DNA from: Saprospiraceae bacterium
Lineage (GTDB): Bacteria > Bacteroidota > Bacteroidia > Chitinophagales > Saprospiraceae
Reading direction: 5' to 3'
Length of the DNA stretch: 64,000 nucleotides
NCBI GenBank assembly: GCA_029263015.1
Contig: JAJCYI010000184.1
Coordinates: forward strand, 1,266 to 65,265
Part shown: positions 34,044 through 34,120 of the stretch, piece after piece
Layout: every line of letters begins with the position of its first letter
Numbering within the stretch: position 1 is the first letter of the stretch
Translations under genes and position numbers: made by a program
The notes under the pieces: generated by a model
The model's input: only the letters and a program-made list of their open reading frames with translations
What the model was told of the DNA's origin: nothing
Database searches by the model: none

Positions 34044-34120
34044 CAGGGAACAGTAGGCAGTAGGCAGTAGGCAGTAGGCAGTAACCCCGAACCAAAAACC
34101 AAAAACCCCGAACCAATAAA
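34044..34120. repeat. Eleven heptamer units in one phase: CAGGGAA, (CAGTAGG)x4, CAGTAAC, CCCGAAC, (CAAAAAC)x2, CCCGAAC, CAATAAA
   Basis: Read directly. Occupies almost the entire spacer between a stop codon and the next ATG. Confidence 0.95.

Follow-up and report, generated by a model that had tools for sequence, protein, structure and literature searches.

Heptanucleotide arrays in the gene spacers of an uncultured Saprospiraceae bacterium are probably slippage-made simple-sequence repeats

How does a gene spacer come to be written in strict steps of seven nucleotides, and does such a spacer serve the genes on either side of it? The question is raised by a spacer in a 64,000-nt stretch of DNA (hereafter the window) from a Saprospiraceae bacterium (contig JAJCYI010000184.1, assembly GCA_029263015.1). 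It separates a gene for a thioredoxin-fold protein from a gene for a cargo protein of the type IX secretion system (T9SS). The original prediction read this spacer and similar sites in the window as heptamer arrays resembling the short tandemly repeated repetitive (STRR) sequences of cyanobacteria. We consider it probable that they are simple-sequence arrays made by slippage in steps of seven (occasionally 8 or 11) nucleotides, filtered by reading-frame constraint and with passive effects on spacer structure. They belong to a class named long simple sequence repeats (LSSRs) in general and STRRs in cyanobacteria.

34044 to 34120, plus strand: focal spacer array, 11 in-phase heptamers between the TlpA-like stop codon and the Por_Secre_tail ATG

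The 5' neighbour of the focal spacer is the TlpA-like gene (33485-34039, TAG stop at 34037-34039) and the 3' neighbour is the Por_Secre_tail gene, whose ATG lies at 34131. The units read, in order, CAGGGAA, four CAGTAGG, CAGTAAC, CCCGAAC, two CAAAAAC, CCCGAAC and CAATAAA, exactly as first described. Tandem Repeats Finder (TRF) returns CAGTAGG x4.7 at 100% identity (34051-34083) and AACCAAA x2.6 (34090-34107). When the spacer is set out as a block of 7 by 11, every unit has C in column 1, and 10 of the 11 have A in column 5. The exact core is flanked by degenerate units in the same phase, and the degenerate right flank taken alone still matches itself at lag 7 in 22 of 35 positions (P=0.002). 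TAG occurs in all three frames of the CAGTAGG core. The start-proximal half (CCCGAAC/CAAAAAC) is rich in A and C and has 6% G. Folded as RNA, the focal spacer shows less structure than 198 of 200 shuffles (z=+1.9).

The 7-nt period is a property of the non-coding DNA of the window as a whole. We measured periodicity as lag-k self-match against dinucleotide-preserving shuffles and called tandem arrays with TRF; the coding and non-coding parts were separated by a greedy open reading frame (ORF) map, which leaves 9.2 kb non-coding, and the enrichment statistics cover the window and a few loci of relatives. Non-coding self-match at lag 7 is 0.302 compared with 0.270 +/- 0.004 in shuffles (z=7.9), and the repeat run gave z=7.3, so the intergenic excess that the original prediction implied is present. 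Lag 14 reaches z=4.7 and every other lag stays at or below z=3.4. Coding DNA carries a period-3 signal alone, without a signal at lag 7. Stringent arrays number seven at period 7 (254 bp) and none or one at each of the periods 5, 6 and 8-13; six of the seven are non-coding, and the coding exceptions fall in N-terminal signal or linker codons.

Could the period be chance or an artefact of assembly? Some of the predicted sites hold two or three degenerate units chosen by eye, and tandem repeats may be collapsed or given a wrong length when short reads are assembled. For the strong arrays this reading is already refuted by the z-scores against dinucleotide shuffles (7.3-7.9) and by TRF arrays of up to 7.6 exact units, and overall we give it practically no weight. 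Independently assembled Logan contigs (run SRR15505518) have flanks identical to those of the window and break within the CAGTAGG array; the identical flanks indicate that the arrays are not an artefact of a single assembly. Four further genomes, from different samples, behave likewise.

These four are relatives compared at the btuB locus (L090-L093), where non-coding lag-7 self-match reaches z=6.0; the arrays are thus not confined to the window. The signal is nonetheless lineage-restricted. The AlaRS of the window groups with metagenome-assembled genomes (MAGs) of Saprospiraceae/Lewinellaceae as nearest loci (Bacteroidota), and other loci of these families give z=1.4 at lag 7, not above their other lags, a result on which we reject period 7 as a phylum-wide intergenic property. 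The remaining Bacteroidota loci show a non-specific excess at all lags. In the pooled Bacteroidota loci (1.47 Mb), stringent arrays count 39 at period 7, 13 each at periods 6 and 8, none at period 9, and 45 at period 5, which was counted at a shorter threshold than the other periods. The density in the window is about four times that of the pool, and arrays adjoin gene ends in unrelated Bacteroidota loci as well. The pooled preference for period 7 matches the general heptamer preference credited to Mrazek (2007), as cited in PMC4679880 and PMC4692102. The longest heptamer array in any fetched locus lies in a Chitinophaga MAG (L074, 8089-8219), with 13 CACAGTC/GACAGTC units followed by an inverted GACTGT array; the crude ORF map calls this region coding, probably because of an over-extended ORF.

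Orthologous junctions show where the arrays come from and how quickly they go. Relatives were compared at the AlaRS locus (L087, L088 and L089, with 91, 86 and 83% AlaRS identity, respectively) and at six orthologous btuB-operon loci (L090-L094 and L096). At the TlpA/Por_Secre_tail junction of L088 the two genes are adjacent with a short spacer, and the alignment shows the block from CAGGGAA to CCCGAAC as inserted sequence of the window, about 61 nt long. JGI metagenome contigs searched with the focal T9SS protein gave only matches of 36-40% identity, too distant for a comparison of the spacer. At the junction of the Peptidase_M23 and PGA_cap genes, GATTGAT is present x1.4 in the window and x3.4 in L087, grown from the stop region TTT GAT TGA; L088 is without an array there and L089 has an inverted GARAATT pair instead. 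In the spacer behind btuB, the window array starts in conserved C-terminal codons and the stop (AGA ATT GAA AAT TAA), and that of L090, (CAACTAA)x5, starts in GAG AAC TAA. The arrays are evolutionarily labile, being gained, lost or swapped at junctions between relatives, and several grow straight out of the stop-codon region of the upstream gene. The window thus presents the features by which LSSRs are recognized: head-to-tail units of 5-11 nt above chance, concentration of units that are not a multiple of 3 outside reading frames, and length steps of whole units between related genomes (GATTGAT x1.4 and x3.4). L087 also has a period-7 stretch of 4.9 units (TCCGCCG) within its AlaRS coding sequence (10837-10870).

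A mechanism consistent with these comparisons would begin with slipped-strand mispairing in replication, which would tandemly duplicate a short local seed, in this lineage with a strong preference for steps of 7 nt. As 7 is not a multiple of 3, selection would remove such duplications from reading frames, and arrays would persist where the frame is irrelevant: in spacers between same-strand, probably co-transcribed genes, in peripheral loops of a riboswitch and in N-terminal signal or linker codons. A 7-nt duplication that spans a stop codon would leave the protein unchanged. Being invisible to the protein, it explains why so many arrays adjoin stop codons and why those near a stop have stop triplets in every frame. 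Arrays would then expand, decay by in-phase point mutation, and be lost or replaced within the divergence of close relatives.

How widely this applies can be judged from the arrays outside the focal spacer and the btuB operon leader and spacer:

23892 to 23948, minus strand: exact array of 7.6 units, GTAAAAA on the sense strand and TTTTTAC on plus
63375 to 63479, plus strand: inverted array pair, AAATTTG/AAATTTAG at 63375-63410 and AATTTCC x4.9 exact at 63442-63475
6115 to 6147, minus strand: array in an ORF, TTTTTAT/TTTTTAC in the sense strand, called by TRF as a 14-mer x2.1
17441 to 17471, minus strand: degenerate heptamers, sense CAACAAT CATCAAC CAGCAAT CACCAAT, in codons of the N-terminal low-complexity linker of btuB
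44036 to 44111, no strand assigned: inverted arrays forming a hairpin, GGAGAAT/TGAAAAT against ATTCTCC/ATTTTCA (z=-3.6)
48658 to 48744, minus strand: 8-nt variant as an inverted pair, GAGTGAAT x3.1 and ATTCACTC x4.4
49210 to 49241, plus strand: 11-nt variant, CCAATCACCAA x1.9 plus TCAACCACT, G-poor
12123 to 12140, minus strand: two units of the GARAATT family in the spacer between two arylsulfotransferase-like T9SS genes
18001 to 18042, minus strand: hairpin of GGAGAAT/GGGGAAT/TGAAAAT-type units just upstream of the riboswitch (z=-2.3)
36328 to 36351, plus strand: short array of about three AAAACTC units in the divergent region upstream of a SprB-repeat gene
46012 to 46055, no strand assigned: weak degenerate TNGTRAT periodicity, 19 of 37 matches (P=0.005, post hoc), without a TRF call

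The predicted period holds at all 13 sites named in the original prediction (P<=0.01 in local shuffles), including the 8-nt variant at 48659-48745 and the 11-nt variant at 49211-49240. Five of them (12124-12165, 18001-18042, 36333-36356, 46012-46055 and 49211-49240) amount to about two or three degenerate copies in segments picked post hoc by eye, and 18001-18042 is better described as a palindrome or hairpin than as a tandem array. Most sites are intergenic as claimed, but 6117-6144 lies in the ORF 3916-6270 and 17830-17892 in a cobalamin riboswitch.

Positions are mixed: arrays are found after stops, before starts, between convergent genes, within the riboswitch and within ORFs. The exact GTAAAAA array lies 24 nt downstream of the stop of a DUF6702 gene (23973), directly after a short GC hairpin. 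Several arrays lie in forward orientation a few nucleotides upstream of a start codon (63439-63479, 49210-49241, 15568-15607 and, in the focal spacer, the distal half), and the 11-nt variant directly adjoins a B12-binding radical SAM gene at its probable TTG start (49242). Such start-proximal parts have 2-7% G on the sense strand compared with 11.7% in ordinary -50..-1 regions of the window, and stop-proximal arrays carry stops in all three frames.

Arrays in a single orientation are unstructured as RNA, and inverted pairs fold into long AU-rich hairpins between same-strand or convergent genes. The pair at 63375-63479 forms such a hairpin (z=-3.7), with 4 nt left between its end and the ATG at 63484. 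The 48658-48744 pair (-40.7 kcal/mol, z=-6.9) separates the gene for a DUF4212 small subunit (48740-49039) from that of its partner SSF transporter (probable start at about 48654), and the hairpin at 44036-44111 stands between a transposase gene (stop 44004) and a convergent acetyl-CoA synthetase-like gene (stop 44110). At these three sites the claimed pairing in inverted orientation holds; they do not make a rule, and we reject a general inverted-partner rule, as k-mer sharing between spacers is the same in direct and inverted orientation (17 vs 17 at K=12). A terminator role was also rejected: a simple hairpin-plus-U scan placed no terminator at any array in 30-50 kb, with totals not above those of shuffles. 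Scans for Rfam families and tRNAs found nothing at the arrays besides the cobalamin riboswitch.

Slippage would account for these structural properties as secondary, largely passive consequences, single-orientation arrays leaving structure-poor spacers with G-poor start-proximal parts and inverted pairs leaving long AU-rich hairpins between genes. According to PMC6847099, translation initiation in Bacteroidetes is tuned by mRNA structure and not by Shine-Dalgarno pairing, and structure-poor, G-poor spacers in front of starts would suit such Shine-Dalgarno-independent initiation. With regard to initiation, the arrays might be tolerated or mildly useful.

The array within ORF 3916-6270 raises a different possibility, namely that the arrays are contingency loci in which gain or loss of a 7-nt unit switches or tunes genes for surface proteins, T9SS cargo and TonB-dependent receptors. 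Heptanucleotide contingency repeats include those in the 5' coding region of neuO in E. coli K1 and the 7-bp repeats in the hmw promoter of H. influenzae. In these precedents (for neuO, see PMC13001214) the unit number changes by slippage. The array at 6115-6147 resembles neuO in its location at the 5' end of an ORF, here for a CarboxypepD_reg outer-membrane protein, where it encodes the hydrophobic core (HFLFFTFYFLL) of a signal-peptide-like segment and where one unit more or less would shift the frame. A degenerate array also lies in the N-terminus of btuB, and many flanking genes code for T9SS cargo or receptors. Most arrays of the window, however, are intercistronic or past stops, where the unit number gates neither a frame nor a promoter spacer, and T9SS cargo genes are spread throughout the window, which makes adjacency to them uninformative. 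The break of the Logan contigs falls in a 33-nt CAGTAGG array, too short for a cycle at k=31, and could reflect heterogeneity of copy number; the same array elsewhere in the genome would explain it equally well. We regard phase variation as an improbable account of the arrays.

A further group of arrays surrounds btuB, for which the following features are needed:

17702 to 17986, minus strand: cobalamin riboswitch aptamer (RF00174) upstream of btuB (15626-17497), 78.3 bits against a gathering score of 31.5
17800 to 17892, minus strand: heptamer array in V1, a variable region of the riboswitch, GGUGAUU CGUGACU GGUGAUU AGUUCUU GGUUUUU AGUUCUU AGUUCUU
17764 to 17784, minus strand: second riboswitch array, sense CUUACUG CAUACUG CCAACUG (CAGTAGG-like on plus), in the loop between GCCACU and CCGGGGAAGG
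15568 to 15642, minus strand: btuB-DUF4465 intercistronic spacer, TGAGAAT TGAAAAT TAAAAAT TGAGAAT TGAGAAT, then AATCACT-type units

The match to the riboswitch is full-length (model positions 1-189) and spans 285 nt, longer than the model because peripheral loops are expanded. Both arrays occupy expanded variable or peripheral regions of this otherwise full-length, high-scoring aptamer, and relatives carry NNNACUG repeats at the site that matches 17764-17784. Homologues of the downstream TonB-dependent receptor are named vitamin B12 transporter. In the spacer behind it, units 1 and 2 are the last btuB codons (L-R-I-E-N) and unit 3 contains the TAA stop. The riboswitch heads a conserved same-strand run of genes, probably an operon, comprising btuB, a DUF4465 and Por_Secre_tail gene (14614-15567), a 152-aa ORF (13995-14453) and two ASST-like T9SS genes (12163-13833 and 10437-12125). 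L090 and L092 share this order of genes, and L091, L093 and L096 share part of it. Two relatives have arrays of their own a short way upstream of the riboswitch: in L092 these are inverted AATGGTA/TACCATT arrays that form a hairpin (2442-2510), and in L093 they are CACTTTT/TACTTTT repeats (2516-2545) with the TTTTTAC unit that is found at 23894-23946 of the window.

Several observations weigh against local slippage as the whole story. One is that the closest relatives, those at the AlaRS locus, give a weak and non-specific signal. A second is that GARAATT recurs at six unlinked loci of the window and is clade-specific, being confined to L087 and L089 among 95 loci, which requires spread or selection beyond local slippage. 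The prediction that units fall into a few sequence classes is borne out for GARAATT only. Unit sharing among stringent arrays of the clade is not significant (6 observed vs 7.7 expected), a search for the AATCAC-spaced pattern found no further site, and over the 64 kb covered we do not adopt "few unit classes" as a general rule: GARAATT alone passes when recurrence is tested directly.

For the GARAATT and GTCTAAT subsets, the recurrence could mean that part of the signal stems from small mobile elements or from elements like the repetitive extragenic palindromes (REPs), with arms built of heptamers, and not from slippage in place. REPs and the bacterial interspersed mosaic elements (BIMEs) are extragenic palindromes in intercistronic regions of enterobacteria. 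Stable spacer hairpins (48658-48744 and 44036-44111) and a dispersed, lineage-specific family (GARAATT) are common ground between them and the window. GARAATT doublets are found at six loci (12 matches vs 1.6 expected), often as hairpins, and the two units at 12123-12140 have a perfect 17-nt inverted match at 15610-15626. GTCTAAT(T) arrays of 7-8 nt, absent from the sites first predicted, lie at 10370-10398 and 25927-25958 inside two elements of 120-135 bp (10277-10411 and 25845-25964). These resemble miniature inverted-repeat transposable elements (MITEs) and share the CATACTACTGGACAT terminal inverted repeat with an insertion sequence (42756-44008, inverted CATACTACTGGACAT ends) that carries a DDE_Tnp_1 transposase gene (42826-44004). 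The arms in the window are themselves tandem 7-8-nt repeats and the stems are AU-rich, in which they differ from REPs. Furthermore, the CAGTAGG, GTAAAAA and AATTTCC arrays have a single orientation and units of their own, with no terminal inverted repeats seen; arrays grown from stop-codon regions are clearly local; and there is no gene resembling a REP-associated tyrosine transposase (RAYT) among the annotated genes of the window. We judge a mobile or REP-like origin of these subsets quite unlikely.

A third observation counting against slippage comes from the btuB spacer. Five species (the window and L090-L093), whose btuB is only 57-62% identical, keep 7-8-nt repeats in the same spacer of 50-58 nt around a shared AATCACTA/AACTAA motif: besides the arrays of the window and L090, L091 and L093 have CACTAAT/TAATCAC repeats and L092 a degenerate version. 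This persistence exceeds the expectation of simple neutral decay, and it is an argument for reading the arrays as selected cis-acting RNA elements, either bound by a protein factor or acting as enhancers. Several arrays adjoin start codons, in the window as in other Bacteroidota loci, the sense strand is strongly depleted of G, the focal spacer is structure-poor, and PMC4679880 and PMC6847099 offer precedent. On the other hand, the units differ wholly between loci (CAGTAGG, GTAAAAA, AATTTCC, GARAATT), so that there is no single binding motif, and the positions of the arrays are as mixed as described above. The start-proximal pair at 63375-63479 is strongly structured, and the focal array is absent from L088. 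In L094 the btuB and DUF4465 genes overlap without a spacer, and in L096 the spacer measures 12 nt and the contig lacks the leader; as neither has an array there, arrays are dispensable at the btuB junction. A selected role is in our view unlikely, though the least improbable of the alternatives weighed here.

The last observation against slippage alone concerns the riboswitch. The V1 array is complementary in antiparallel orientation to nearly the whole btuB-DUF4465 spacer (15568-15640) 2.2 kb downstream, over about 52 bp. RNAduplex gives -41.7 kcal/mol compared with -21.2 +/- 3.7 in shuffles (0 of 300 as good), and with the last btuB codons included the duplex has 52 pairs and -46.4 kcal/mol, compared with -20.9 for the antisense strand. 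Of 586 non-coding tiles taken from the two strands, V1 on the same strand pairs best with the spacer (-47.9; next -31.7; mean -13.0 +/- 5.0), and in the global minimum free energy (MFE) fold of the 2,463-nt transcript 47 nt of V1 are paired with the spacer. Relatives repeat this unevenly: duplex z-scores are -4.2 in L093, -2.2 in L091, -1.3 in L092 and about 0 in L090, and the MFE folds contain 21, 0, 18 and 8 long-range pairs, respectively. We rejected an asymmetry of G.U pairs between the strands as a sign of selection at the RNA level, because the G.U pairs stem mostly from a single amplified unit and there is no sense bias in L091 and L093. Moreover, arrays amplify any chance complementarity of their units, and a few units are reused in both orientations by the genome. 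A functional long-range duplex of about 52 bp is highly doubtful. If it were true, it would block the stretch directly before the DUF4465 start or give rise to a processing site. The second cistron, which is B12-capture-like, would thereby be tied to the leader RNA in its expression, and slippage at V1 and the spacer would co-expand their complementarity. The btuB pair would then represent simple repeats recruited into a long-range mRNA interaction, a lead worth targeted follow-up.

Heptamer repeats are known from other bacteria. According to Mrazek (2007), as summarised in PMC4679880 and PMC4692102, heptanucleotides outnumber the other long simple repeats in most genomes of prokaryotes, polymerase slippage was proposed as the origin of LSSRs, and the LSSR-richest genomes of that survey are Burkholderia, cyanobacteria, actinobacteria and Xanthomonas. 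The arrays of the window share with LSSRs (Mrazek, Guo and Shah, 2007) tandem 7-nt units above chance, a mainly intergenic location and a sporadic distribution by lineage; Saprospiraceae lie outside the coverage of the survey as these summaries convey it, and stop-codon-seeded and riboswitch-embedded arrays are features of the window. MacGregor (2015) described direct repeats of heptamers, TAACTGA among them, from Beggiatoaceae, from cyanobacteria and from five Bacteroidetes, namely Flexibacter litoralis, Gramella forsetii, Aequorivita sublithincola, Paludibacter propionicigenes and Elizabethkingia anophelis (PMC4679880), which contradicts the suggestion of the original prediction that an equivalent description is lacking for Bacteroidota. 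As in the window, these heptamers are intergenic, often lie beside start or stop codons and are interspersed with heptamers of other sequence; at the junctions concerned, close relatives have shorter, repeat-free spacers, and contigs end within the arrays (PMC4679880). TAACTGA itself occurs in the window as one singleton, with no tandem doublet. Arrays embedded in a riboswitch and complementary array pairs are unreported in PMC4679880, and Saprospiraceae are a new host family. The distribution of TAACTGA resembles that of XisH/XisI (PMC4679880), a co-distribution paralleled in L087, which has both genes directly after AlaRS (12850-13589).

The intergenic heptamers that Rehm (2015) reported in Xanthomonas and Nostoc include inverted pairs and differ from species to species between a given pair of genes (PMC4692102); given these reports and the general survey, arrays of this kind are no peculiarity of cyanobacteria. 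The GGGAATC repeats of Xanthomonas resemble those of the window in their intergenic location at the same gene pairs, in varying in length and sequence and in forming some inverted stem-loop pairs, but they are G-rich and form G-quadruplexes or i-motifs (PMC4692102), whereas the arrays of the window are not G-tract repeats. Neither GGGAATC nor GGGGATT is tandemly repeated in the window. With the STRRs of cyanobacteria (Calothrix PCC 7601; Nostoc GGGGA(T/C)T, the strand of CCCCAGT, PMC4692102) the arrays share the heptamer period, the non-coding location, the spread over many loci and the occurrence in both orientations with inverted pairs. They differ in phylum, in units that are mostly A/T-rich and without G-quadruplexes, and in a limited vocabulary that is supported for GARAATT alone. 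The STRR units CCCCAGT, TTGGTCA and CAACAGT (for the first, see PMC4692102) have no tandem doublet in the window in any rotation on either strand. The likeness to STRRs is therefore one of form, and membership in a named family (STRR, TAACTGA, GGGAATC or GGGGATT) fails, while the arrays do belong to the generic class of heptanucleotide simple-sequence repeats.

The finding extends the range of bacteria with many heptamer repeats between genes by one lineage, a clade of uncultured Saprospiraceae, and corrects the impression that these repeats are limited to cyanobacteria. As first put forward, the arrays matter little, being real yet mostly ordinary. In practice they break short-read assemblies, inflate the lengths of riboswitches and spacers, and mislead ORF callers: several "coding" calls in the window are over-extensions of start codons across arrays. 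The orthologous comparisons are unusually clean snapshots of array birth at the stop-codon region and of turnover, and bear on the question of how STRR-type repeats originate.

Other repeats of the window are of different kinds. GC-rich perfect palindromes follow genes at 3113-3148, 3800-3833 and 3873-3909 (AGGTATCGGACACCT...AGGTGTCCGATACCT) and at 46125-46159 and 46882-46914 (AGAGGTGACACCTTT...); this family is REP-like or terminator-like and separate from the heptamer arrays, and 46882-46914 is the top match of the terminator scan. An AT-rich 32-nt tandem repeat x2.6 (TGCAATTATAAAATTGCATTATTTTAAAATAA), which is also a 49-nt imperfect palindrome, lies at 56707-56808, directly upstream of a gene for an AAA_14/DUF4143 ATPase (56801). 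A 42-nt segment at 35380-35421 has a direct copy of 93% identity 25 kb away (60524-60565). Inverted intergenic pairs of 32-33 nt with spacers of 96-115 nt are found at 60389-60420/60536-60567 and 26028-26060/26157-26189, and the Logan contig L002 begins within the 26157-26189 arm. The dispersed intergenic repeats further include 10179-10263 with 52122-52187 and a hairpin family, GATTTAAGATTACATGAT. Finally, genes for Uma2-family endonucleases occur in the window (6838-7446 and 35428-36096) and in the btuB operon of two relatives (L092, 6117-6698; L096, 3091-3669).

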